The notes beneath the pieces are model-generated. The model had not been told where the DNA came from. It was given only the letters and a program-made list of their open reading frames with translations, and ran no database searches. Both the position numbers and the translations under genes were made by a program. Shown here one piece after another: positions 10,712 through 64,000 of a DNA stretch of 64,000 bases. Positions within the stretch are counted from its first letter, which is position 1; each line of letters opens with the position of its first letter. The stretch is from a virus (Duplodnaviria; Caudoviricetes): the IMG/VR virus record IMGVR_UViG_3300037722_000745, positions 1-64,000 of that record; one strand, given 5' to 3'.

Positions 10712-10747
10712 CCTGAGGGAGGTGAAAGCCTCCCTCGTAATTGAAAC
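10712..10747 (+). repeat. solitary CRISPR repeat unit
   Basis: CCTGAGGGAGGTGAAAGCCTCCCTCGTAATTGAAAC, 35/36 identical to the array repeat; no second repeat nearby; 9 nt before the rnhB ATG. Confidence 0.95.
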
Positions 10748-44717: not shown

Positions 44718-45593
44718 TTACCAGGGCCCCTTACGCTTCGGATGGTATTTGGAGCCCGATGACCCGGGCGGCAGCAGATCGTCGGAGTTTGATTGGGATG
44801 GCCTCGAAGTTGATTGGGATGACTTAGACTGGTCAAACAAATTGCTTTTCGGTGGGTCGACTCCCATCCCAATTGCATTGTCGTTATCCTCGACTTCCTC
44901 CTGTACCTCTCTGCGCAATCGGTTGACTCTCTCTCTAGCTTCCTCAACCCCCCCACCCAGATCGACTATGTCATAGTTCTCTTGGATGTAGCCCCAAGCA
45001 CCAGGAGTGTAGGCTTCATGCCCTGGGCCAAAGAACTCAACATCCTCCGCAATCCAGGTGGGTTTGCCTGCGCCCATTCGAATCGCCATCGTTTCATGAA
45101 GCACATCCCCAGCAGCTCTGTTCCGGTGGAGAACCCCGAGCCGTATGATGACTAAGCTCGGCGGTAGAAGAAGATCGTTGAGGTTGTTGTAAGTGGCGAT
45201 CGTCTCCCGGTTTTCCTTGGATCTCTTCGTGTAGGCAAAGTCCCCAAGCCATACCCGCACCAGCTCCTGGTCGTCCGTGGTCCGAAACGTGAAACCCTTG
45301 GAGTATTCCCACTTCACCGAAAGGACCCAACGCAAGTGCCGGCAAACCATCTCCCAGGTCCCCCTCAGGAACAGGTTCTCTTGGGTGGCATCCCGGTCTT
45401 CAGTGTAGAGAGGACTCCGAACGTGCTTCACGCCTGAAATGACGGGACCCAGAAATGCATGAAGCTGCTTGCGTTTGAGACAAATGCACGGAATCGGAAT
45501 CAGGTCCTCGCCGTCGGTCTCATAGCGCCAGTGTTTTCCTTTGCACTGTGGGCATATGGTCTCCTCAGGCACGATTGGTAGATACACCGGCAT
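44718..45593 (-). CDS. possible DnaC/DnaI-like helicase loader
   Basis: CPQC...CIC Zn motif then degenerate P-loop fold (LLLPPSLVIIRLG, KPTWI); next to DnaB. Confidence 0.5.
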   Translation of the reverse strand: MPVYLPIVPEETICPQCKGKHWRYETDGEDLIPIPCICLKRKQLHAFLGPVISGVKHVRSPLYTEDRDATQENLFLRGTWEMVCRHLRWVLSVKWEYSKGFTFRTTDDQELVRVWLGDFAYTKRSKENRETIATYNNLNDLLLPPSLVIIRLGVLHRNRAAGDVLHETMAIRMGAGKPTWIAEDVEFFGPGHEAYTPGAWGYIQENYDIVDLGGGVEEARERVNRLRREVQEEVEDNDNAIGMGVDPPKSNLFDQSKSSQSTSRPSQSNSDDLLPPGSSGSKYHPKRKGPW

Positions 45594-48429
45594 CCGAGTC
45601 TCGCAGACTCTTCATCAGCTCGTAGGAGAAGCTACCCTCACTCTCGAAATTCAAAGCTCCGACCGCAGCTTCCCCAAGCACTTTGTCGATCAGGTCTTTC
45701 TTGCTTTGAAGGATTTGGAGTGTGTAGTGATCGATCGTCTTTTTTGCTCGACCCGGACGCTCCGCTACTAGGTGGATCGCTACGACGTGTTGGTGAGGAG
45801 AGCCGATACGAATCGGTCGCCCGAGAAGCTGGACGTAGTTCCCCCACGACCAAGGAGCATTGTAGAAGATCATCGCCGCAGCGGCTTGTAGGTTGATCGA
45901 CTCCGAACCCGCATCTGAGATGAAGATGACCCGCACATCGGATTCAGGATCCTGAAACTCCAGCATGGCCCTCTGCCGAGCTGGATTGGTCTTGGTGTCG
46001 ACTACTTTGCCTGTGATCGCCGTGCTCTCCACCCCAGCTTTCTTGCACAACTCCTGAAGACGGGGGATGAGGGACGCGAATCGTGTGTACACAATCACCT
46101 TCTCCCCATCGAACTCCCCGGTGATCAGATCCAACATGGCTTCCTCTTTCGAGGACAAGGATTTCACGTTGTCCGCCTCACCCAACAACTCGAGCCCGAT
46201 AGTGTCCCCCTCTTCGAAGCGAAGTAAGCTCAGAGAATCAACCGTTTGTTGGCAGTAGATGAGCGCAGTCAGCGTTTTGGTCTCTTCGTAGTCCCGCACC
46301 TCTCCGTCCCCCAAAGCGAGCACGCCTGACAGTGCCTCCTCGTACTTCGTGTTCTCCGCTTTAGATAACGTGACCCGAACGTCGCGCGTGAGAAGCTTGG
46401 GAAGCTCGTCCGAAATCTCATGCTTCGGCCGTCCGAGGAAGAACGGATCAATGCGCATCCGGAACAGCTCCAGGTTCTTGTACCCGATGATGATCGGAAT
46501 TTTCCTTCGACCTCCTACAGGTTGCCACTTGACCTCGCAGAACAGGTCGAGGAACTTCGTCTTCGTCGTGAAGACTCTTGGGTAGATGCACTTGTAGATG
46601 GCGTAACCCTCGATCAAGTTGTTCTTGAGCAAGGTAGCTGTGAGCCCGTAACAACGATTTGCATGGCTGGCTAGCTCTGAACACACCTGCCACGTCTTTG
46701 TCGACGGGTTCTTGAACGCGGTGCAGTTAGAAACTAGGGCCCCTCCAGCTATGTAGTTATGGTTACCCTCGACCTCCAAGTCATAGACGTAGTCAAGATG
46801 CTCCCGCACCTTGGGGGCACGCTTCCATGGAGTTTTAGCCAGCACCACATCCCGTACCAAACCAACCGTAGGGTTACGATCCAAACTCTCCAACAGGAGT
46901 GGTTCTTTACCTGGAAACTTGTGCTCCACCCCAGGTAAAGAGCCAGGCAACAGCTCTAGGAACCTGTCGGCCGCCTCTGCGTCCAAGTACAACACCCAAT
47001 GACGACCTGACTTGCTAATCTGCGCCTGAACCCCCCACCGCCACCGAAGCCAACCCGCTAACAATTCGTTCTCGCCGTAGGTGAATCCTTGCGTGTTTAA
47101 AATAATACGACGGCGAACCACCCCTTCTTTGGTTGTGTGCGTCTGCAACGATCCGTCATCCCCATACCAGATCGCAAGACCTAACGGGCCAACGCGGCTC
47201 AACCATTCTACAGAGGGGTGCTTACGGCCTTCTCGATGCGTAGTCAGTGTTGAACACAAATGTGGGTTGGCTCGTAGCCTGAACCGGCAAATGGGAGAAC
47301 CCCCGTACCCGCTAGGGGTTGTGCTAATCTCAGAGGTGCCAAGCGAGGCTAACAAGCCCTTCTTGAAATCCAGGTATCTTCGCTGTGCTTGCCCATGTAC
47401 AAAAGACACCCCCCACAAACTACGCTTGGGGTGGGACACACTAGCATCCCCAAGCAAACCCCCCAGAATAATCTGGAGTTGATCATCAGAAGGTATTGTG
47501 TCCGTAAAGGTAGCTGTCTCGGAGCCCTTCCTAAGACGCCCTGCTTCCGTTGGTTTGCCGTCGCATCTGTAGAATTTATGATTTCTGGTTACGATCACGC
47601 TGTTGGCATACCGAAACTCAAGTTTCACCAACCCCTTCGTGCGCAATGGGTTACGGACCCAACGGATTACCCGGCGTGGTTCCATGGAGTTGGTCGCCCA
47701 GTTCCATGACAACACGGATACAGGTTCTCGCCCGCATACGATCTTGCCTATCAACCGCTCAGAGCCATCAGCTAAGCGTATTGGAGTGTGGTACTCGAAA
47801 CATTCGTCGTACACGACAGTGAGGCCGTCGATCTTCTGCATGAGGCCGTTCAACAACCCGGGGCTCATCGGCTTCTTCATGTCCGGCTGCCCGTTCTTCT
47901 TGAGCGGACGGGTGGCTCCCTGATTCCAGTCGCGGACCAAGGGAGCATACCCCATGACCATCACCGCTTTCGGGTCGTCCGGGCCCGTTGGATGATTCAA
48001 AAAAGCGTCGTAGGTTTCCCGACGCTCATCCGGACCTCCGTTTGCCAAGTAGACTTGAATACCTGTGGCGAACTTGTCGATCTCTGCCGCCCACTGACGC
48101 AGGGCGCTCTTGGGGGTGATCACGACCACTTTGTTCGTCGGTTCTTTCTGCCAGGTGTAGCAAAAAGCTGCAATGCAGGTGGGCGTCTTGCCCGTGCCAG
48201 TGGCGTCCCCGAGCACCATCCTCTTCATCGACATCAGATGGAAGACCGCCTGGACTTGATAGTACCGGAGCTTGAACGGCTGGACTTTGCCGTCGATGCC
48301 CACGATCTCAGATCGCAGCATCGAGATGGGCTTGAGCGCTACCGTCTTGCTCTCCCGGACCTTTTTGAGAAGCTCGTAGACCTTCCTGTGCTTCTCTACC
48401 GGATCTTCTTTAGGTGTTTTCGCGGCCAT
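45565..48429 (-). CDS. SNF2-family helicase with intein
   Basis: LGDATGTGKT, YDE|C, LTATLLKN, VIVYTRF, GSESINLQ, WSWGNYVQLLGR. Confidence 0.93.
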   Translation of the reverse strand: MAAKTPKEDPVEKHRKVYELLKKVRESKTVALKPISMLRSEIVGIDGKVQPFKLRYYQVQAVFHLMSMKRMVLGDATGTGKTPTCIAAFCYTWQKEPTNKVVVITPKSALRQWAAEIDKFATGIQVYLANGGPDERRETYDAFLNHPTGPDDPKAVMVMGYAPLVRDWNQGATRPLKKNGQPDMKKPMSPGLLNGLMQKIDGLTVVYDECFEYHTPIRLADGSERLIGKIVCGREPVSVLSWNWATNSMEPRRVIRWVRNPLRTKGLVKLEFRYANSVIVTRNHKFYRCDGKPTEAGRLRKGSETATFTDTIPSDDQLQIILGGLLGDASVSHPKRSLWGVSFVHGQAQRRYLDFKKGLLASLGTSEISTTPSGYGGSPICRFRLRANPHLCSTLTTHREGRKHPSVEWLSRVGPLGLAIWYGDDGSLQTHTTKEGVVRRRIILNTQGFTYGENELLAGWLRWRWGVQAQISKSGRHWVLYLDAEAADRFLELLPGSLPGVEHKFPGKEPLLLESLDRNPTVGLVRDVVLAKTPWKRAPKVREHLDYVYDLEVEGNHNYIAGGALVSNCTAFKNPSTKTWQVCSELASHANRCYGLTATLLKNNLIEGYAIYKCIYPRVFTTKTKFLDLFCEVKWQPVGGRRKIPIIIGYKNLELFRMRIDPFFLGRPKHEISDELPKLLTRDVRVTLSKAENTKYEEALSGVLALGDGEVRDYEETKTLTALIYCQQTVDSLSLLRFEEGDTIGLELLGEADNVKSLSSKEEAMLDLITGEFDGEKVIVYTRFASLIPRLQELCKKAGVESTAITGKVVDTKTNPARQRAMLEFQDPESDVRVIFISDAGSESINLQAAAAMIFYNAPWSWGNYVQLLGRPIRIGSPHQHVVAIHLVAERPGRAKKTIDHYTLQILQSKKDLIDKVLGEAAVGALNFESEGSFSYELMKSLRDSDAGVSTNRA
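46726..47802 (-). mobile_element. intein with LAGLIDADG homing endonuclease (359 aa)
   Basis: Starts CFEYHTPI after YDE; ends VYDLEVEGNHNYIAGGALVSN before Cys+1; internal GGLLGDAS and IWYGDDG. Confidence 0.93.
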
Positions 48430-52310: not shown

Positions 52311-53462
52311 TTACCCCTTCATTTGTGCTGCTGCGGCTTCCAGCACCGCTACGGCGTCCTTTGGAAGGTCCTCAAACTTCTCCGTCATCCAAGTCAGGAT
52401 GACCTTGCCCCTCCGAAGCCGAGTTAGGTTCTTCTTCGCTCCGTAGCTATAGTCTCCGAAAATTGCCCTCGGAAGCACCTTTCCGCCCAATCGGGCCCCA
52501 AGATACTTCTGCGTATCCCGCTCACTCAAGTAGTACTGCCTGCCGTTCAGGATCAAGGCGACCTTGTAGTAGTCACCGTGGTATGCGCCATCCCAGAAGT
52601 TGTGACGAGCCTTTGGCTCCGGGTAGTACCCAGGCTTCTCGTTGAACGTCCGCTCCTGGTTGATCTCCACAACCTGTTTCCTACCGGCTACCGCGGGGGA
52701 GTCGCCCGTGACCTCACCGCTGTTGACAAGCCAGTGCTTAATCGAGGTCGGGGCTCCCGTCGGAAGTCTGGTCCCGAGTCTCCAACCCTTGGCGTCGAGC
52801 ACCTTCGAATTGAATCGCCCCGGGAACTTCATCTCCTTAAGCGCCTTGATGACGTTGCGGTATAGCCAGGAGGGATTTGTGCCCTCGTCCTTACTGATCG
52901 TGTGCTCAACTGAACGAAGCGTCCAAACGTCCTCGTTATAGCTACCGCCGATAAAGTGGTCGTGCCGTTGGTGATGGTGCGCTGCTACAAAGACGTGCTG
53001 CCGCTCAGTGCGACCGTATGCCACGAAGTAACGATCACTCAAGCTAGATTCGTCGCCCATCCAGCCCTTACCCCGCTGGTACGGCGTGACGAACTTCCAC
53101 TCCACACCGCCCGGGATCCCTGCCTTGGCTTCAGCTTGCTCGAAAGTGACTTCCTTCTTCGGAGGCGGTGTCCACTGGGTCGTATAGCCTGGATCCTTCG
53201 TAGTCGTACTGGGGCTCGTACTAGGCCCTGAAGGCCGTCGATCGTACGTGGGACGAGCCTTCCCTGTCAGGATGTCGTAGGCCAGGCCGACCGCCTTGAA
53301 GTCCTCTTCCTTCCCCCCTCGGTCAGGATGCATCTGGAGAGCCTTCGCTCGGTAGGCACTCTTGATGTCTCCAGGGCTTGGCGTACTCGTGGGAGGAAAG
53401 CCAAGCACACTCTTGGCCTCTTCCAGAGACATCGCCATCTTTAGGAATTTATGACGATCCAT
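52311..53462 (-). CDS. J-domain protein
   Basis: AKSVLG..IKSAYRAKALQMHPDRGGKEEDFKAVGLAYDIL. Confidence 0.85.
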   Translation of the reverse strand: MDRHKFLKMAMSLEEAKSVLGFPPTSTPSPGDIKSAYRAKALQMHPDRGGKEEDFKAVGLAYDILTGKARPTYDRRPSGPSTSPSTTTKDPGYTTQWTPPPKKEVTFEQAEAKAGIPGGVEWKFVTPYQRGKGWMGDESSLSDRYFVAYGRTERQHVFVAAHHHQRHDHFIGGSYNEDVWTLRSVEHTISKDEGTNPSWLYRNVIKALKEMKFPGRFNSKVLDAKGWRLGTRLPTGAPTSIKHWLVNSGEVTGDSPAVAGRKQVVEINQERTFNEKPGYYPEPKARHNFWDGAYHGDYYKVALILNGRQYYLSERDTQKYLGARLGGKVLPRAIFGDYSYGAKKNLTRLRRGKVILTWMTEKFEDLPKDAVAVLEAAAAQMKG

Positions 53463-53507: not shown

Positions 53508-53927
53508 TCAGTAGAGCACTGGCTTTCGCCGATTGATAATCTGCACACTCTCGCTTTTGACCCCAAGCTCAGACCTGACTAGAGCGAGCGGAACTTCCGG
53601 ATCATAGTCCCCACAAGAAAATACGTCCATGCTGAAGAATTCTTGCAGAGGCCAACAGTGGATGGCGATGTGGCTTTTGTTGATTACGCAAAGCCCAGTA
53701 ATCCCACCCTCATCTTCAAAAACACCCGTCTCCTGAGAACGCCTAAGCGTGTCTATATCGATGGGGACTTCGATGAAATCCGGACCAATCAAGATCGTCA
53801 TGTTCAGCGCTTCCACAATTCCATGGAAGAGCGCCCTGAGACGATCCGTCCCGAACACTTTGGGGTCGTGCACGAAGGCGTCAATCGTGACATGAACCCC
53901 AGCGCTTTCAATAATTCGACCTCTCAT
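53508..53927 (-). CDS. S-adenosylmethionine decarboxylase-like proenzyme, paralogue 2
   Basis: GITGLCVINKSHIAIHCWP..MDVFSC; ATGA overlap with paralogue 1. Confidence 0.82.
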   Translation of the reverse strand: MRGRIIESAGVHVTIDAFVHDPKVFGTDRLRALFHGIVEALNMTILIGPDFIEVPIDIDTLRRSQETGVFEDEGGITGLCVINKSHIAIHCWPLQEFFSMDVFSCGDYDPEVPLALVRSELGVKSESVQIINRRKPVLY

Positions 53928-54394
53928 CCTAGAACTCGCTCCACAACCCGAGAAGCTGCTGGACGGAGAGAGCTGGCTGGCGTTGCAAGATCTCGAGTGT
54001 GCTTCCTGATCCCCATGCAAGGGCCGCCCTCTAACCCACGCCCGCGTTCAACGTAGACCAGTTCAGAGACTGTAGCTTGGAGGCCCGATCGCAGAACGTG
54101 GTGGGCTTGATGCGGGTCCCCTTCCCCGCACGTGTAGAAATCAACCGCAGCGTACCCGTGTTCAGGCCAGGTGTGGATCGATAGATGTGACTCCTCGATC
54201 ACCACAACACCGCTCACTCCTTGTGGATCGAACGGCTGGAACTTCGAGAACACGATGTTGGTCCTAGCCGCCACCGCAGCCTGCTTCATCAGCGCTTGTA
54301 TTTGAAGCACATTGTTGAGGGCCTCGAACGGACACCCCATGTACTCAATGAGCAGATGCTTACCGTGAGTGTCCACGTCGAGTCTCCCGGGCAA
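53924..54394 (-). CDS. speD: S-adenosylmethionine decarboxylase proenzyme
   Basis: GKHLL, FDPQGVSGVVVIEESHLSIHTWPEHGYAAVDFYTCG. Confidence 0.92.
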   Translation of the reverse strand: MPGRLDVDTHGKHLLIEYMGCPFEALNNVLQIQALMKQAAVAARTNIVFSKFQPFDPQGVSGVVVIEESHLSIHTWPEHGYAAVDFYTCGEGDPHQAHHVLRSGLQATVSELVYVERGRGLEGGPCMGIRKHTRDLATPASSLRPAASRVVERVLG

Positions 54395-56742: not shown

Positions 56743-59700
56743 CTACGCCTTACGGGTCAACGGGATTGCCGACGAGTCAATGAGCATCCGAGTGTTGTTG
56801 CGCACAAGCGGATGCCCCTCAATTCGATAGAGGTCCGCAGCCGCATACCCCTCTCCGGTGCCATTCGTACCAATACGGATGGGCGTCGGGGCTGAGGACC
56901 CAATGGGCGCATCGTAAACGCTGGTCAGAATCAGCATCATCAGCTCACTGCCAGCCGATGCCTCATTTGAACCCACGTTGGTAACGGAGTTCCGAACCAA
57001 CATGGCCCGTCCTTGAAGCGTACGAACATGATCCGTAGTGGCCGTGGCTACCGAGTTGTTCAGAGATACTGAGCCTCCGGGCCTCGGCCCGGAAGCCACA
57101 AACACGGAGCCACCACGATGCGTGCGGAAGTTCGTGTCCAGAGCGAAGTTGTTGGCCTCCCCATCTACATGGACCAAAACATCTCCAGGAGACCCAACTC
57201 CAGAGGTCGCGGTGCTCAGACGCACCTCGTGATGCTCGAGAGCCGGCGATGCAAGACCTGTGGATTGCCCTGATCCCACGGTATTTCGGTAGACGAGAGG
57301 AGCCATCACGTCCGTGTACCCGAAGTGCTGACCTCGGAAATCCTTGTCACGAAACAACGCTCCTAGAGGCAGCCGCTCCGTGCACCCGAGATACTCGGTA
57401 CCGATGTCCGGCCCGTCTCCAGCGAAGTTCGTAGGGAGAGCCTTGGGTCGTGGGTCCACACCAGAAGACGGCGGGTAGACGGACGGATCCTCGTAGGCCA
57501 CATTGGTGAACACCAAATCAGCGTCCGAAGCGTCTCCTGAATAGCGGCCCGTACCCAACGAGGTCGCGAAACTCAAGGAAGCTAGCACCTCCAACGCCTT
57601 CTCATTAGGCCGAGTCAGGTTGTCCGCATCCAATTCAGTCGACACCACATCAAAGGCATCGTCTGACATGAGCGGTCCAGGGACGTACGGGAGATCGATG
57701 TAGCTGTTCTGAGATCCCCAAGCATCCCCTTGGTACGGGGTGCGACTGTAGTTCACCAGGATCTGATCGGAGGCCGTAGCGGGTCCTGGGAGAAGCGCCG
57801 AAGGACCCGTAACACGCTTGTTGATGTTGTCTTCTCGGCTACCCGCAGCTCCCGGGTCTCCTCCGCTGCCCACATCGTCCCACGCGTTAACATTGCCAGG
57901 GCGGGTCAGTATGAGACGAGCCTCTGAATTCAGATCGAATGTGCCACGGTCAAACCCAAACACGGCCGCCTCTACCACATAGGTGCCCGAGGCGAAGTCC
58001 GCGATGGGGTTCGGCGACCGGGTGATATCGATCGCGTTGGCGTTCAAGATGAAAGTCGAGTCCCCATCCGAGTCAATTTCAATCCACATGGGCGGCCCAT
58101 CGCCCGACCTCATAGCCTGTCGCAGGAGATTCGTTGCGGTGCCGCCTCCGCCTGGCCCGCGCTCATCGGTGAAAGGGGTGCTCGAACTGATGTAGTCCTG
58201 GGCCTCGTAGACACCGAACAGGCGAGCAGCGCCATAGAAGGGCGGCAATTCCAGCCCCTCTCGACCTAGCCCTCGGGAGTCAGTGAAAAAACGCATCCCA
58301 GCAGTCTGATTCCCACTGATAACTCCCGCTGTGTTGAAACTGAGGGGGTTCGACGCAAAATCAATCTGGCTGAATACAGAGTATCGAAAAGAGGTGTTGC
58401 TATACGCAATGTAGTTGAATTGGTTCTCAACCACAGCGCCTGGAGTGCTCCGGATCATGTAGTTGATGCCGCTAGCAAAGTCGCCATCCTCCGCAATCAT
58501 TGGCACGTTCAACTCGCCCCAGCCCGGGACAAGGTGCCGGGGTAGGCTGACATAGATGTTGTTGAACGCGGGGTCCCCCGCTGATTGACTACAAAACAAC
58601 CCAAGGGGGTCTGTCTGTGTCCACTTCGGCGTGACGCCATCGACTGCGTTGAGGGGCATGACTCCTTGGGCGCTGTGAGTCGTGTAGCTGATGCCCACAG
58701 TAGCCTGGGCTCGAACAGGACGGTCGAGGGTGTAGCTAGTGGCTCCAACACTGAGGATCGTATAACGACCGGCGCCGGGTCCAGACGGAATCACCAAGGC
58801 ATCCCCGCCAACCGTAGTCCCTACACCACTCGCGTCCTCAAACACCGGCGTGTTAGCGCTGCTTGTGAAGCCTGTCGCACTGGTCAGTTTGGGAGTTGGA
58901 ACAGGGTTCGCTGCGTCCCCATCCACTGTCAGAAGATTGGGGAATTCGATTCGACGGAAAGGCGTAGCAATCACGGTCTTGCTGCCAAGATCCGCGTACA
59001 TCTCCGTGATCGACGGTAGCAAGCCGTTGAACTCTGCCGTCCGGTACTTCGCCCACAGAGGAGCCCACGCGACACGTGCTACGTGGTTGGTGTCAGGGAT
59101 GCCTCGCTCCTGCACCATCAGCAGCGACGACGGGTTGAGATAGGTGATGTTGTGCAGCGAGTCGGGGCGACGTGCGAGACCGCGTCCCGGACCATAGACT
59201 GCATGCACCCGGATGTGGAGCTGACGCGGAGACGCCGTCGTCGTAAGCTGGCTCGGGAAGCTTCCCGATAGCGTGATGATCAGGTTGTCCGCAGGCCCTG
59301 GGACCGCTGGCGTCACTGTGTACATGGTCGACGGTAGGTCGCCCGTCTCGCCAGCAAGACGCAGTTGAACAGCGCCCGTAACGCTGTCATTCAGCCACCG
59401 GATCTGATCCGTAGCACCCGCTTGAAGCCCCGTTTTGAGTTGGTTGACGGGGATCTCAATGATGTCGCCGGCTGTGAATTGGTTGCCGACCGTCTGGTTC
59501 GTCGTGTTAACGGTCAGAGATAACGACCACGGCTCGTTGATCGCCACACCAGGGCCCGGCGGCACAACACCCGAGTTGGGTCGAACCACGCACTCGATTG
59601 GTTGGATCGTCGCCGCATCAGAGAAGACCGTACGGATGTTGTCTGGAGCGTCGAGTTGCGTCACGCCCAATGACACCGCGGCCGACTGAATCGCATCCTG

Positions 59701-61062
59701 GTAATGGACGAAGGTCCCTTGGGGCCCACCGCCGGAGCGCTTCCAGTTGGCTCGCAGCTCACCCCTCAGCAGCTTGTCGACGTTGTTCTGAAGCAGCGCC
59801 GTGTAGTCCATCCCGTTAGGATTGACCGAGTGCCGTAAGTCGAGAATATCAGTGAGAGCGATCTGGTCTGAAAACAGCTCGTCGGGGCGCCCAGAAATGA
59901 CACGGATCTCAGACCCCGCCAAGTGAGCTTCCCCGATCGTTCCGTTGGTGCCTCGAGTCAGACCATTCAGCGTCGTACCGGTGATCGATGTGTAGGTCAG
60001 GATCTCGTCGCCGATTTGAATCGTCACCGCCGTCGCCGGGGAGGCGGGGAGCGGAATATTCGTGACTGAAGCAAGCGTCGCCGAAGTGGCCGTTGCGTTG
60101 AGATCCGCCGCAAGGGTTGGAACGGTAGAGAACGTCTTAACGCCTGTGCGATCGACTGCCGTCGGGTTGCGGTCGAACCCCCCATTCAAGTTCTGCGATG
60201 GGTTTCCATTCCAACCAATCGAGTTCCTACGGAACACCACCGCGATCGGAACGGCATAGCTATAGCCATCCACGGTCCCTAGCGAGGAACTAGTCCCATC
60301 ACCCGCACGCCACAACCCAGGGTCCCCCAGCTCCTCCCGCATGTTTTCAAACGTGAACGCAGTCACAGCCGAAGCCGCACCCTGCGCTTTGACAACCACA
60401 GGATCGAAGCCATCCGGGTATGTCGTCAGACCTACCAAGCCCTTGACCACACGGATGCGGTACTGGATTTGAACTCGCTGCTCTGTCTCAAACCCAAGAG
60501 CAGGATCGAGCAAATCATCTGGGAGAAAAGAGCTGCCAGACTCGACATTACCGTAGCGGTAGATGCCACTAGCAGACGGCTTGTTTGTAGTTGACGGGTT
60601 AGGCTGAATCCTGGCCTTCCACACCTCCAAAAAGACGAAGTCAATCCGGAAGTCCCCTGAATTGGAGGGAGGGGGATCAAGCGCAATGACGTTCGTCGTG
60701 TCGGTGTCATTAGGACTCCCGGGAGGAGTGCCCGTCCGTGTGCCTGTCACCGGGATCAACCACCCGTTGACGTTCGCCCACATGATAGATCGCTGCTCAC
60801 CGGCTCGCTGCGGACCGAACTTGAACCAGTTCGACCATGTGGAGTGGGTTTGGTAACTTGCCTGGGGGTTGGTCTCGTTACCCAAAAACCCAGAAGGTGT
60901 GCCGCGCAAAACCGCAGACTGCAAAGCTTCGTGAGCCAACTGCTGTTGCAGTATCAGAGCTGCGTCGGTTGGAGGCTTGCCCTGCTGCCAAATAGTGGTG
61001 ATGTACTGCGTGTCTGCCGATTGCAGGACACGGGACACTCCGGGACCTAGATTGTCGCTCAT
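56743..61062 (-). CDS. large virion structural protein (tail/baseplate-like), 1439 aa
   Basis: Gly/Thr/Ser-rich beta protein with IQIGDEILTYT..LTRGTNGT..AHLAG module common in tail proteins. Confidence 0.7.
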   Translation of the reverse strand: MSDNLGPGVSRVLQSADTQYITTIWQQGKPPTDAALILQQQLAHEALQSAVLRGTPSGFLGNETNPQASYQTHSTWSNWFKFGPQRAGEQRSIMWANVNGWLIPVTGTRTGTPPGSPNDTDTTNVIALDPPPSNSGDFRIDFVFLEVWKARIQPNPSTTNKPSASGIYRYGNVESGSSFLPDDLLDPALGFETEQRVQIQYRIRVVKGLVGLTTYPDGFDPVVVKAQGAASAVTAFTFENMREELGDPGLWRAGDGTSSSLGTVDGYSYAVPIAVVFRRNSIGWNGNPSQNLNGGFDRNPTAVDRTGVKTFSTVPTLAADLNATATSATLASVTNIPLPASPATAVTIQIGDEILTYTSITGTTLNGLTRGTNGTIGEAHLAGSEIRVISGRPDELFSDQIALTDILDLRHSVNPNGMDYTALLQNNVDKLLRGELRANWKRSGGGPQGTFVHYQDAIQSAAVSLGVTQLDAPDNIRTVFSDAATIQPIECVVRPNSGVVPPGPGVAINEPWSLSLTVNTTNQTVGNQFTAGDIIEIPVNQLKTGLQAGATDQIRWLNDSVTGAVQLRLAGETGDLPSTMYTVTPAVPGPADNLIITLSGSFPSQLTTTASPRQLHIRVHAVYGPGRGLARRPDSLHNITYLNPSSLLMVQERGIPDTNHVARVAWAPLWAKYRTAEFNGLLPSITEMYADLGSKTVIATPFRRIEFPNLLTVDGDAANPVPTPKLTSATGFTSSANTPVFEDASGVGTTVGGDALVIPSGPGAGRYTILSVGATSYTLDRPVRAQATVGISYTTHSAQGVMPLNAVDGVTPKWTQTDPLGLFCSQSAGDPAFNNIYVSLPRHLVPGWGELNVPMIAEDGDFASGINYMIRSTPGAVVENQFNYIAYSNTSFRYSVFSQIDFASNPLSFNTAGVISGNQTAGMRFFTDSRGLGREGLELPPFYGAARLFGVYEAQDYISSSTPFTDERGPGGGGTATNLLRQAMRSGDGPPMWIEIDSDGDSTFILNANAIDITRSPNPIADFASGTYVVEAAVFGFDRGTFDLNSEARLILTRPGNVNAWDDVGSGGDPGAAGSREDNINKRVTGPSALLPGPATASDQILVNYSRTPYQGDAWGSQNSYIDLPYVPGPLMSDDAFDVVSTELDADNLTRPNEKALEVLASLSFATSLGTGRYSGDASDADLVFTNVAYEDPSVYPPSSGVDPRPKALPTNFAGDGPDIGTEYLGCTERLPLGALFRDKDFRGQHFGYTDVMAPLVYRNTVGSGQSTGLASPALEHHEVRLSTATSGVGSPGDVLVHVDGEANNFALDTNFRTHRGGSVFVASGPRPGGSVSLNNSVATATTDHVRTLQGRAMLVRNSVTNVGSNEASAGSELMMLILTSVYDAPIGSSAPTPIRIGTNGTGEGYAAADLYRIEGHPLVRNNTRMLIDSSAIPLTRKA

Positions 61063-61333
61063 CCCTGTTACCTTCTGATCCGATTTGCAAGCCCACTAGA
61101 CAGGCTGTCAAATGGGCCGGCTTATAGGGAGTTTCTCGGTTTTCGAGAGGCCCGGTGGTGTGTTACCCTCGGGAGTCTCTCGCATTCTGCGGGTTCTCTG
61201 AGAATTCAATAGGTTAGAAAGATCCGGATCCCGATCGGCCTCTGGATCCAAGGGGTCCCAACCCATGATCCCACAGGGGGGTCTCGCAAACCGCCTTGTG
61301 AACCTCCGAATTCACACGGTTTCTCAGAATCCC
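61063..61333 (+). promoter_or_regulatory. CRISPR leader, divergent from the structural gene
   Basis: About 270-nt non-coding region ending GGGGGGTCTCGCAAAC...CAGAATCCC before the first repeat; the variant repeat lies at the far end. Confidence 0.6.
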
Positions 61334-61884
61334 CTTGAGGGAGGTGAAAGCCTCCCTCGTAATTGAAACAAGACGGCGAAGGGCAACGCAACCTCGGAAC
61401 CTACGGGCTTGAGGGAGGTGAAAGCCTCCCTCGTAATTGAAACTGCTCGCTGAGTGATCGATCGAGATTGGTGGTGAAGCTTGAGGGAGGTGAAAGCCTC
61501 CCTCGTAATTGAAACCTGGAGCTGGGTAGCCGCTGCCTCCGCTGCCATGGCCCTGCTTGAGGGAGGTGAAAGCCTCCCTCGTAATTGAAACCAGGAAGCC
61601 CAGGCCGTCTACGCGTCGCAGAGCGACCCTTGAGGGAGGTGAAAGCCTCCCTCGTAATTGAAACCAGACAACTGAGTTCCTACGGAACACCACCGCGATC
61701 GGGCTTGAGGGAGGTGAAAGCCTCCCTCGTAATTGAAACGACGGGCGACGTCGTCGCTGGCCTGCCGGGATTCGGCTTGAGGGAGGTGAAAGCCTCCCTC
61801 GTAATTGAAACCAGGCGGCTGCGCTCCTTGACGGCGGCGACGAATCCGCTTGAGGTAGGCGGATGCCTACCTCGTAATTGAAAA
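61334..61884 (+). CRISPR. CRISPR array 2 (8 repeats, 7 spacers)
   Basis: Same repeat at 61334, 61408, 61480, 61556, 61629, 61704, 61776 and variant at 61849; spacers of 38, 36, 40, 37, 39, 36, 37 nt. Confidence 0.98.
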
Positions 61885-61938: not shown

Positions 61939-64000
61939 ATGACCAGATCCATTTTCGTTTTCTCTCTGATTCTAACCGCCTGTAGTACCGGGGGCCCTAT
62001 CGAACTACCCTCCTCCAAGGAAGGGTTCTCAGATGGAGGGGCTAGTTTCGTTGGCTCTGAACTTAGCGATGACGGGGGTAATAACCCAACGATCTCCGAC
62101 TCCAGCGTCACAGCCGACGGATCGTCTACAGCAGCCGACGGATCGTCTACAGACGCACACAAGCCAGAAGAAGCGGACGGGGGGGCCCCACCAGTCGATG
62201 CTGGGTCTCCCGCCGATGCGGACGCGGAGACAGACACCGAAGACGGAGGGGACTCCGATCTTCGTACTCCTGATGGGGGCGAAACAGAAACGGACGCGAC
62301 TCCCGACGACGATTGCCCAGGCTCTGGCCCGGGAGTAAAGTGTGAAGGTCGGGACAGATTCGCGTGCGTCTCCGGACAGTGGGTCATACAAGAGACTTGT
62401 GACCACACGTGTCAAGCAGGGGCTTGTGTAGGGGAGTGTGACCCGGGAAGCACGGACTGTTTGAACGAGCACCCGCGGACTTGTAACTCCAACGGGCTAT
62501 GGGACGTGGGTTTGGCTTGCTCGTTTGTATGCTCGGAAGGTTCCTGCGTAGGCGAGTGTGACCCCGGGGCCACCGACTGCCAAGGCGATGTGCCTCGAAC
62601 CTGCAACTCGCAAGGGCAGTGGGTAGAGAGTTCGGCCTGCGCGTTTGTATGCTCCGACGGAGCCTGCGTGGGGGTGTGTGAACCAGGCGATCGAAATTGC
62701 TCGGGAGACACTCCTCGTCAGTGCGATGCTTCGGGCCAGTGGGTCAACGAAGCCGCTTGTCCCTTCGTTTGCAGTGAAGGTGTGTGCTCCGGTGCATGCG
62801 ACCCAGGAGCAACAAGCTGCGCAGGGGACACCCCCCGTACGTGCAATGATTCCGGTGTGTGGGTCAACGGAACGACGTGTCCTTTCACATGCTCGGGAGG
62901 TTCGTGTACCGGGGTGTGTGAGCCTGGCGACCGTGATTGCTCGGGCCTGACACCCCGAAGCTGCAATGCCGCGGGGCAGTGGGTCAACGAGACCGCTTGT
63001 CCCTTCGTTTGTTCGGGAGAGGGCGTCTGTATCGGAAGCTGCACTCCGAACGACACTGATTGCCAGGGAGATGTCCCCCGGACTTGCAATTCGCAGGGTC
63101 AATGGGTGAGCGGTTCTGCCTGCCAGTTCGTGTGCTCTGACGGTGCCTGTACCGGCGTGTGCGAACCTGGCGATGTCCAGTGCTCGGGGAGCCAGATTCA
63201 AACCTGCAACTCGCAGGGCCAATGGGGCACTGCGGCCAACTGCCCAAGCGTGGCCGGTGCCAATGCTTACTGCCTGAACGACGCCTGCACCTTCGACTGC
63301 CAGCTCGACTACGACGATTGCGACGGCAACCCTGCCAACGGCTGCGAAGCCCACCTGGAGACCGACAGCAACAACTGCGGGAGCTGCGGACACTCTTGCT
63401 GCGGGGGTGCTTGTGGCAGCGGGACATGCGAGGTCTACGATTCCGGACTCCGCACCGTTTCCACCTGGGAGGTAGACTCCAACAGCATTTATACGACCGC
63501 CGTTAACGGTCAGACGGTGACCATCCAGCAGACACCACGTGAAGGGGGCGCCACATCGGCGATGGCCTCAATCACTGGCGACACAACATCCCCCCGGGTC
63601 ACCGATTTGGCCTCAAACGGAACCAACCTGTTTTGGAGCCTTCGAGAAGGGGGGGTGTTGTCGGTGCCGCTCGACGGTTCTGGACAGTACGAGTCCTGGT
63701 ACATAAACACCATCGACACATTCACCGTCAGTTCCAATCACGGGGCGTACACGTGGTACAACCTCTCAGCCACCGGAGAGCTATTGTTGGATGCTACTCG
63801 GGTTTACTGGTTCGGGACCAGCTCCGGTTTCGTCAACTGGAAGTGGCTGGTGACCCCCACACAGACCGGCGGGTCATTCGTGCTACCTGACGCTCCGACC
63901 CATCTAGTCTCAGATGGGGATTATATCTACGCGACGCCCCATACGGCACTGAATCCAATCAGCCGTCACAACCTTGCGTTCGACAACAACGAGAGCTTCG
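61939..64000 (+). CDS. myxobacterial-type Cys-rich repeat lipoprotein (runs off the window)
   Basis: MTRSIFVFSLILTAC lipobox; acidic DAG-rich linker; 40-aa six-Cys repeats; DCDGNPANGCE..NNCGSCG motif; open to 64000, so missing from the ORF track. Confidence 0.85.
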   Translation, partial: MTRSIFVFSLILTACSTGGPIELPSSKEGFSDGGASFVGSELSDDGGNNPTISDSSVTADGSSTAADGSSTDAHKPEEADGGAPPVDAGSPADADAETDTEDGGDSDLRTPDGGETETDATPDDDCPGSGPGVKCEGRDRFACVSGQWVIQETCDHTCQAGACVGECDPGSTDCLNEHPRTCNSNGLWDVGLACSFVCSEGSCVGECDPGATDCQGDVPRTCNSQGQWVESSACAFVCSDGACVGVCEPGDRNCSGDTPRQCDASGQWVNEAACPFVCSEGVCSGACDPGATSCAGDTPRTCNDSGVWVNGTTCPFTCSGGSCTGVCEPGDRDCSGLTPRSCNAAGQWVNETACPFVCSGEGVCIGSCTPNDTDCQGDVPRTCNSQGQWVSGSACQFVCSDGACTGVCEPGDVQCSGSQIQTCNSQGQWGTAANCPSVAGANAYCLNDACTFDCQLDYDDCDGNPANGCEAHLETDSNNCGSCGHSCCGGACGSGTCEVYDSGLRTVSTWEVDSNSIYTTAVNGQTVTIQQTPREGGATSAMASITGDTTSPRVTDLASNGTNLFWSLREGGVLSVPLDGSGQYESWYINTIDTFTVSSNHGAYTWYNLSATGELLLDATRVYWFGTSSGFVNWKWLVTPTQTGGSFVLPDAPTHLVSDGDYIYATPHTALNPISRHNLAFDNNESF
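62437..63243 (+). repeat. tandem ~120-nt coding repeats
   Basis: Six full and one partial copy of C[DE]PGxxxCxGxxPRxCxxxGQWVxxxxCxFxCSxGxCxG. Confidence 0.85.

Follow-up and report, generated by a model that had tools for sequence, protein, structure and literature searches.

Why should a bacteriophage carry a CRISPR (clustered regularly interspaced short palindromic repeat) spacer that nearly matches one of its own genes? The question is raised by the first 64 kb (the window, that is, the whole stretch of DNA analysed here) of a linear 323,174-bp IMG/VR virus record, IMGVR_UViG_3300037722_000745. Within this window, the fifth spacer of CRISPR array 3 (61334–61884, + strand) closely resembles a site in a divergently oriented open reading frame (ORF) of 1439 amino acids (56743–61062, minus strand), which encodes a probable virion protein with tail-like features. 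We favour the interpretation, to which we assign a probability of roughly 55%, that spacer 5 is a guide for the exclusion of kin, that the carrier would be protected by changes in the seed region of its own allele, and that the effector is probably a phage-borne variant of the type I-C system.

Spacer 5 occupies 61665–61703 on the + strand, or 61665–61702 if the variable first base of the repeat is counted as repeat. It aligns without gaps, and on the same strand, with the near-self protospacer at 60212–60250 (+ strand), with identity at 34 of 39 positions and 29 contiguous identities (60221–60249). The mismatches fall at spacer positions 3, 4, 8, 9 and 39; position 39 may itself be repeat sequence, since the first base of the repeat varies. 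The non-target strand has a TTC (60209–60211, + strand), formed by Asn-Trp codons, immediately 5' of the protospacer. The canonical type I-C protospacer adjacent motif (PAM) is 5'-TTC. The first-pass annotation had described the match, its contiguous core, the mismatch positions and the adjacent TTC, and all of these were reproduced exactly; its placement of the mismatches at the seed end also holds, with positions 3, 4, 8 and 9 being PAM-proximal. In the frame of the target gene the spacer reads ...FRRNSVVW and the phage's own copy ...FRRNSIGW, the protospacer spanning an invariant FRRN motif and a variable dipeptide ahead of an almost invariant Trp.

A chance origin of this match was ruled out, given that an exact 29-mer is expected about 1e-9 times for about 44 spacers compared with both strands of 323 kb. 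BLAST of all the spacers, about 48, from the arrays of this repeat family and from the Cas12j array, against the whole genome returned it as the sole significant self-match. All four internal mismatches would fall within positions 1–9 with a probability of 0.0065 when weighted by the variability of sites in the protein family (0.0017 unweighted). Array 3 lies only 1453 nt from the near-self site and is divergent from the target gene, and such closeness has a probability of about 0.006–0.009 under random placement (about 0.006 for a genome of about 475 kb).

Array 3 consists of eight 36-nt repeats at a spacing of 72–76 nt and seven spacers of 36–40 nt, all of them unique, and thus has the regular, near-identical repeats of a CRISPR array. 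The repeat folds into a hairpin of 9–10 bp, closed by a GAAA loop, and has an 11-nt 3' tail that ends in ATTGAAAC (−18.2 kcal/mol, z −5.7); a hairpin followed by an 11-nt tail is the form of a Cas5c substrate. Upstream lies a leader of about 195 nt (61138–61333, + strand), which MAFFT alignment of the upstream regions shows to be conserved in front of arrays 3, 4 and 5; a search of the array 3 leader for a sigma-70-like promoter found none. At the far end, the terminal repeat (61849–61884, + strand) has degenerated by six changes and retains its 9–10-bp hairpin through compensatory substitutions (−17.5 kcal/mol), so that array 3 combines a conserved 5' leader with 3' repeat decay, as CRISPR arrays do. 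On the basis of the 3' end of the repeat, the conserved leader, the degenerate last repeat and the co-orientation of arrays downstream of cas operons in related phages, array 3 is read on the + strand. The CRISPR RNA (crRNA) has the sequence of that strand and is therefore complementary to the mRNA of the minus-strand 1439-amino-acid gene. The first-pass annotation had proposed this antisense relationship, and had named transcription from the opposite strand as one of two results that would refute its reading; as far as sequence can tell, the evidence points to the + strand.

This complementarity suggests another explanation, also raised in the first-pass annotation, namely that the crRNA uses its 29 nt of perfect pairing to tune expression of the large gene of the phage itself, either within a nuclease-free Cascade (CRISPR-associated complex for antiviral defence) or as a free antisense RNA. 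The array and the gene are divergent neighbours, and a crRNA of this polarity, being complementary to the mRNA, would pair with the non-template strand of the gene. To our knowledge type I effectors do not act on RNA, and three mismatches in positions 1–8 normally abolish binding by a type I Cascade. The mismatched residues are a novelty of this lineage and do not form a conserved regulatory site, and no comparable self-match is present in related phages. A helicase replaces Cas3 in the related systems, for which repression of transcription has been suggested (Al-Shayeb et al. 2020; PMC7162821), and this would suit a regulatory role. Overall, antisense self-regulation found no support in the lineage-specific residues or in the relatives, and we consider it quite improbable.

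Where did the spacer come from? Relatives agree with it at 15–29 of the 39 homologous positions, compared with 34 of 39 for the phage itself; the two closest relatives (77–79% protein identity) match at 26, and the phage's own copy agrees with the spacer at every synonymous site in the 29-nt stretch. Because the self copy is so much nearer than the relatives, synonymous sites included, the source probably lay on this phage's own terminal branch, as a very close sibling or a direct ancestor. The first-pass annotation had derived the spacer from a close relative, and the comparison agrees with this, the apparent source being far nearer than any known relative. A paralogue was rejected as the source: the genome holds one paralogue of the N-terminal domain (genome 71,124–72,353, 36% identity), which no spacer matches, and there is no paralogue in the region of the complete related phage G001 that corresponds to the part missing from the record.

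The phage's own allele, and not the spacer, is the derived one. In a comparison of 121 homologues its Ile-Gly dipeptide occurs nowhere else, and the nearest homologues most often have Val-Val. With the dipeptide masked, a tree of 44 homologues places the phage in a supported clade of six, the other members of which have VV, VS, VS, VV and TV. The spacer has the same base as both closest relatives at positions 8 and 9, and the same base as one of them (L002) at position 4. As judged by the homologue states, the tree and the relatives' bases at positions 4, 8 and 9, the carrier's lineage acquired no fewer than three of the four seed differences, and it is the spacer that shows the older state. 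Two other Joint Genome Institute (JGI) assemblies (L145 and L146) contain the seven-spacer array and the self allele in identical form. The protospacer is unchanged in Logan contigs of six sequencing runs, and the spacer in one of those runs, Logan data being contigs, which drop rare variants. The configuration of array and self allele is fixed and stable.

A derived and unique self allele facing an ancestral-like spacer is also what an autoimmune accident followed by escape would leave behind. The spacer would have been taken from the phage's own ancestral genome, seed mutations would have rescued the phage, and the spacer would now be a harmless fossil. The restriction of all internal mismatches to the seed (P about 0.007) and the 1453 nt that separate array and target (P about 0.006–0.009) accord with such a history, as do arrays that are static across samples and for which no external target was found. 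The same data fit equally well with acquisition from a sibling that carried the ancestral allele. Recombination between repeats would be expected to remove a fossil, yet the spacer is kept in every assembly seen, and in phage-borne systems without Cas1 and Cas2, self-acquisition would need a host adaptation module, of which none was found. We regard escape from autoimmunity as possible but unlikely. It is the main rival to kin targeting, from which sequence data do not separate it, and the two may be stages of one history.

The record is 68% complete according to CheckV and carries phage replication genes (DNA polymerase A, a DnaB-like helicase, a primase and a SNF2-type helicase); a bacterial chromosome with a prophage was thus ruled out. 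At the protein level it is colinear with G001 (IMGVR_UViG_3300033489_000001), a complete phage genome of 411.6 kb. Because it combines a CasPhi (Cas12j) gene with colinearity to G001 and with multiple arrays, the genome is of the Biggiephage type (Al-Shayeb et al. 2020, Nature 578:425; PMC7162821), and the I-C variant CRISPR-Cas of huge phages was described in that work together with CasPhi, which is present here in the same phage.

G001 has a cas operon that is followed directly downstream, in the same orientation, by an array (189.1–193.6 kb; locus L118, 1–4000) whose repeats, more than 60 in number, have the architecture of those in array 3. The operon encodes Cas5c (PADLOC, 2.6e-26), Cas8c (1e-29; Pfam Csd1, 1e-31), Cas7c (3.6e-47; Pfam, 3e-48), a 771-amino-acid ResIII/DEAD helicase without Cas3 or HD signature, and a conserved protein of no known function; Cas1, Cas2 and Cas3 are absent from it. 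A PDB sequence search with the helicase gave no match. The repeats of the G001 array differ among themselves, with many paired changes on both sides of the stem and some units fused or truncated, which makes it an unusually heterogeneous array. The same operon is present on three further contigs, of 453 kb (L140, with arrays), 10 kb (L147, with the first repeat) and 5.7 kb (L141, on which no repeat was found). The hairpin and the 11-nt tail, ending ATTGAAA(C/T), are shared by three of these related contigs (G001, L140 and L147), and the operon-linked repeats are lineage-specific, each lineage having its own repeat sequence wherever one was seen. In related phages this repeat class accompanies type I-C proteins, which makes TTC a plausible PAM, as the first-pass annotation had assumed, and the TTC at 60209–60211 stands where type I-C systems have it, on the non-target strand beside the protospacer. 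TTC occurs at the homologous place in both closest relatives (L001 and L002), yet in just 8 of 51 relatives.

The first-pass annotation had assigned the guide to a host Cascade. Neither the repeat nor its invariant 3' half was found in 185,579 species genomes, in JGI metagenome contigs or in other IMG/VR contigs, and a relaxed two-handle search with the same 11-nt tail returned unrelated bacterial repeats, cyanobacterial and other, plus the related phage G001. Word-based and profile searches for Cas7c brought up another four lineages, together with a canonical I-C locus from a bacterium, and this repeat accompanies none of them. A host Cascade thus loses ground: the repeat was found on no bacterial or metagenomic contig, and the I-C variant Cascades of related huge phages are encoded by the phages themselves, with repeats particular to each lineage. 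By analogy with these phages, an effector borne by the phage seems somewhat likelier than one supplied by the host. Priming, which had also been suggested, is unlikely because phage-borne systems lack Cas1, Cas2 and Cas3.

A host could still have contributed the spacer in the past. A host I-C array would have taken it up against an ancestor of the phage, the phage would have escaped, and the spacer would have entered the phage array by recombination between identical repeats. A seed-escape signature beside an intact TTC is the trace expected of host targeting, and Logan contigs hold extra leader/repeat junctions that are absent from the 323-kb record. Those extra leader copies for which a comparison could be made, on leader-like contigs in two runs, have the depth of the phage itself; searches of bacterial genomes and metagenome contigs turned up none with this repeat, which among huge phages is specific to its lineage. 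A relic of host immunity is, in our estimation, very improbable.

In type I systems the R-loop starts at the PAM and needs pairing at positions 1–5, 7 and 8, as is known for I-E and I-C. In the reading that we prefer, spacer 5 would record the ancestral or sibling Val-Val allele of a conserved, probably virion, gene of the phage itself, the resident copy of which keeps its TTC while its four substitutions are confined to seed positions 3, 4, 8 and 9. By analogy with the characterized systems, the mismatches at positions 3, 4 and 8, together with that at 9, would prevent the crRNA-loaded Cascade from opening an R-loop on the carrier's DNA. The same complex would still bind the DNA of a co-infecting close relative with the unmutated allele beside a TTC, and the outcome would be superinfection exclusion of kin. 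The effector would be the lineage's own Cas5c, Cas8c and Cas7c together with the non-Cas3 helicase, presumably encoded in the unassembled third of the genome. Its action on the target could be destruction, or a mere block, in line with the suggestion of Al-Shayeb et al. (PMC7162821) that nuclease-less phage systems may repress transcription.

Tight linkage between the spacer and the resistant allele would prevent the formation of self-targeting recombinants. In a more elaborate form of this idea, the array and the resistant allele, 1.45 kb apart, would constitute a linked weapon-and-immunity pair operating through a nuclease-free phage Cascade. The crRNA would silence the conserved virion gene of any kin that co-infect and carry the ancestral allele, the seed changes would have arisen stepwise under self-silencing, and the linkage would have been kept against self-targeting recombinants. 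We consider this elaboration doubtful; if true, the pair would be a CRISPR-based analogue, in a virus, of a poison-antidote or greenbeard locus.

Several observations weigh against a guide directed at kin. The first of these is that no exact protospacer was found, either with the 29-mer in IMG/VR or with a 25-mer over the four mismatch positions in JGI metagenome contigs. It was also absent from the homologous place of the IMG/VR loci where this could be located, including the eleven best matches, from GenBank phages and five related whole huge-phage records, and from the contigs of eight sequencing runs at 80–85% likeness. The search for a phage with the exact protospacer, which the first-pass annotation had put forward as a check, thus returned nothing, and no related virus was found to match the spacer exactly or better than the carrier itself does, an absence that may reflect sampling. 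The second is that the other spacers are without identifiable targets, so that the rest of the arrays gives no sign of competition. Nothing above chance was obtained for the other spacers in the phage's own genome, G001 and 117 loci, for the spacers of arrays 3, 4 and 5 in GenBank phages, for the other spacers in the five related whole records, or for two further spacers in IMG/VR. With targets known for none of the other spacers, the arrays do not yield the phage variant's own PAM preference, and the PAM and seed rules applied to it are carried over from knowledge of I-E and I-C. In addition, array 3 is identical in three assemblies and shows no sign of ongoing acquisition.

The remaining objections concern the effector. 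No Cas7, Cas5, Cas1 or I-G Cas7 was detected in the 323 kb, which hold no type I cas gene, and tblastn of six G001 operon proteins against the same 323 kb gave nothing. Nor is there a Cas7c tied to this phage. A Cas7c of the phage I-C variant clade (P0132) is encoded on a 3.1-kb contig (L168; JGI 3300037705) from a sample that also holds this phage, its linkage to the phage being unproven; it is followed by the start of a helicase, and neither Cas5c nor Cas8c lies upstream of it on the contig.

Taken at face value, the lack of type I cas genes and of known targets for any spacer would mean that the arrays are orphans with no working effector and that the match has no present function. In at least four arrays the repeats, hairpin and leader have been preserved with hardly any change, which speaks against this view, as does the colinearity with G001. 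The record corresponds to 280–410 kb plus 1–121 kb of G001, and the missing part to 121–280 kb. The array and operon of G001 lie at 189–202 kb, inside the stretch that matches the missing part. The absence of cas genes from the 323 kb is uninformative because the operon-bearing stretch of G001 corresponds to the unassembled third, and we judge orphan arrays to be improbable.

The target gene is conserved in huge phages, with 202 IMG/VR loci and 977 homologous proteins. It is large and occupies the edge of a run of very large genes. Matches to PHROG tail families are weak (E values of 1e-7 and 6e-6, residues 304–416), and the protein has DUF4815-like features, which we take as a lead only. Searches of the protein against Pfam, and against the PDB by sequence, gave no match; an AlphaFold2 model of residues 1–520 had a pLDDT (predicted local distance difference test) score of 39, too poor to be used; and a PHROG scan annotated none of the neighbouring large ORFs. 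The first-pass annotation had called this a virion gene outright. The tail matches, DUF4815-like features, size and conservation make a virion protein probable, and Pfam, PDB and AlphaFold lend that assignment no support. Just downstream of the gene, on the minus strand, lie ORFs for an S-adenosylmethionine decarboxylase-like protein (53508–54020) and a DnaJ-domain protein (52311–53462).

We were interested in how this arrangement compares with known systems. The CRISPR autoimmunity survey of Stern et al. (2010) reportedly shows that self-matching spacers are tolerated through mutation of the target or of the seed. As in that survey, the partial self-match described here is mutated at the end that is critical for recognition; the survey concerns bacterial chromosomes and prophages, whereas here the array and its target lie 1.45 kb apart on a huge phage of lytic type. 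The I-C variant of huge phages (Al-Shayeb et al. 2020; PMC7162821) resembles the present system in its association with CasPhi, in a repeat with a hairpin and an 11-nt tail of the form used in Cas5c-type processing, and in its compact multiple arrays. Relatives of this phage encode the Cas5c, Cas8c, Cas7c and non-Cas3 helicase of that variant, and likewise lack Cas1 and Cas2. The present system differs in that the 323 kb of this phage do not include the operon, and a near-self spacer with seed-restricted mismatches is not in that report.

Virus-borne arrays against close kin carry spacers that are 'closely similar ... although not identical' to the carrier's own sequence (PMC7099407; PMC11656645). 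Such kin-targeting mini-arrays were described by Faure et al. (2019) and, for SPV1 and SPV2, by Medvedeva et al. (2019), were modelled by Iranzo et al. (2020; PMC7099407) and have been reviewed (PMC11656645). The present case agrees with them in having a near-identical, mismatched copy of the target at the homologous place in the carrier's own genome, and kin exclusion has been proposed for them. Mini-arrays have one or two spacers, repeats identical to those of the host, and rely on host Cas proteins. Here, by contrast, several arrays of 4–13 repeats are present, no host CRISPR-Cas with an identical repeat was found, the effector is probably phage-borne, and no exact-match relative was identified. 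Both components are therefore of known kinds, the one a huge-phage I-C variant and the other virus-borne near-self spacers against kin, and the combination fits a known use with no new mechanism.

Array 3 is part of a larger CRISPR inventory. One repeat family makes up at least four arrays in the record, at 1–257, 61334–61884, 64598–65526 and 120214–121201. Array 1 (1–257, + strand) is cut by the start of the contig. It has at least eight repeats at a contig end from another sample (L162; JGI 3300053780), where it extends over at least four further spacers, and every contig examined breaks inside it. The other end of the record (323,000–323,174) carries at least 3.5 tandem copies of a unit of about 55 nt, which probably cause the assembly break there. 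A solitary repeat copy (10712–10747, + strand) matches the array repeat at 35 of 36 positions, and more such copies are found at genome positions 223,772, where part of the leader precedes the repeat, 285,970 (minus strand), 286,131 and 322,376 (minus strand). Array 4 (genome 64,598–65,526) contains two spacers that are each present twice (64708/64856 and 64779/65076) as well as two loop variants of the repeat, which together suggest internal duplication. CasPhi is encoded by an ORF of 718 amino acids (genome 218,308–220,464, minus strand; E value of 2e-159 to CasPhi-2, PDB 7LYS) and is adjoined by its own seven-repeat array (217,705–218,179). A mini-array of two repeats of the CasPhi-array type lies 23 kb away (194,554–194,659). 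The six spacers of the main CasPhi array had no match in the phage's own genome or in the related loci examined, the spacer of the mini-array not having been included in that search.

Two other genes of the window deserve mention. Between arrays 3 and 4, on the array strand, an ORF that starts at 61939, runs to the end of the window at 64000 and continues to genome position 64,380 encodes a cysteine-rich protein of 813 amino acids with a lipoprotein-like N-terminus and a repeat period of 120 nt (40 amino acids). A SNF2/DEAD-type helicase of 954 amino acids (45565–48429, minus strand) has a match to LAGLIDADG homing endonucleases at residues 314–506, possibly an intein.

Virus-borne near-self spacers directed at kin are already established, and the locus described here is an instructive example of them with no new principle. 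With its derived changes restricted to the seed, the phage gene bears a clear footprint of evolution driven by CRISPR. If our interpretation is correct, spacer 5 and its two alleles would supply a natural guide-target pair for an uncharacterized I-C variant, in which the ancestral target matches exactly and the self target has four mismatches, each beside a TTC. Such a pair would allow one to ask whether this variant binds, silences or destroys DNA, which PAM and seed it uses, and whether huge phages use it against their kin.

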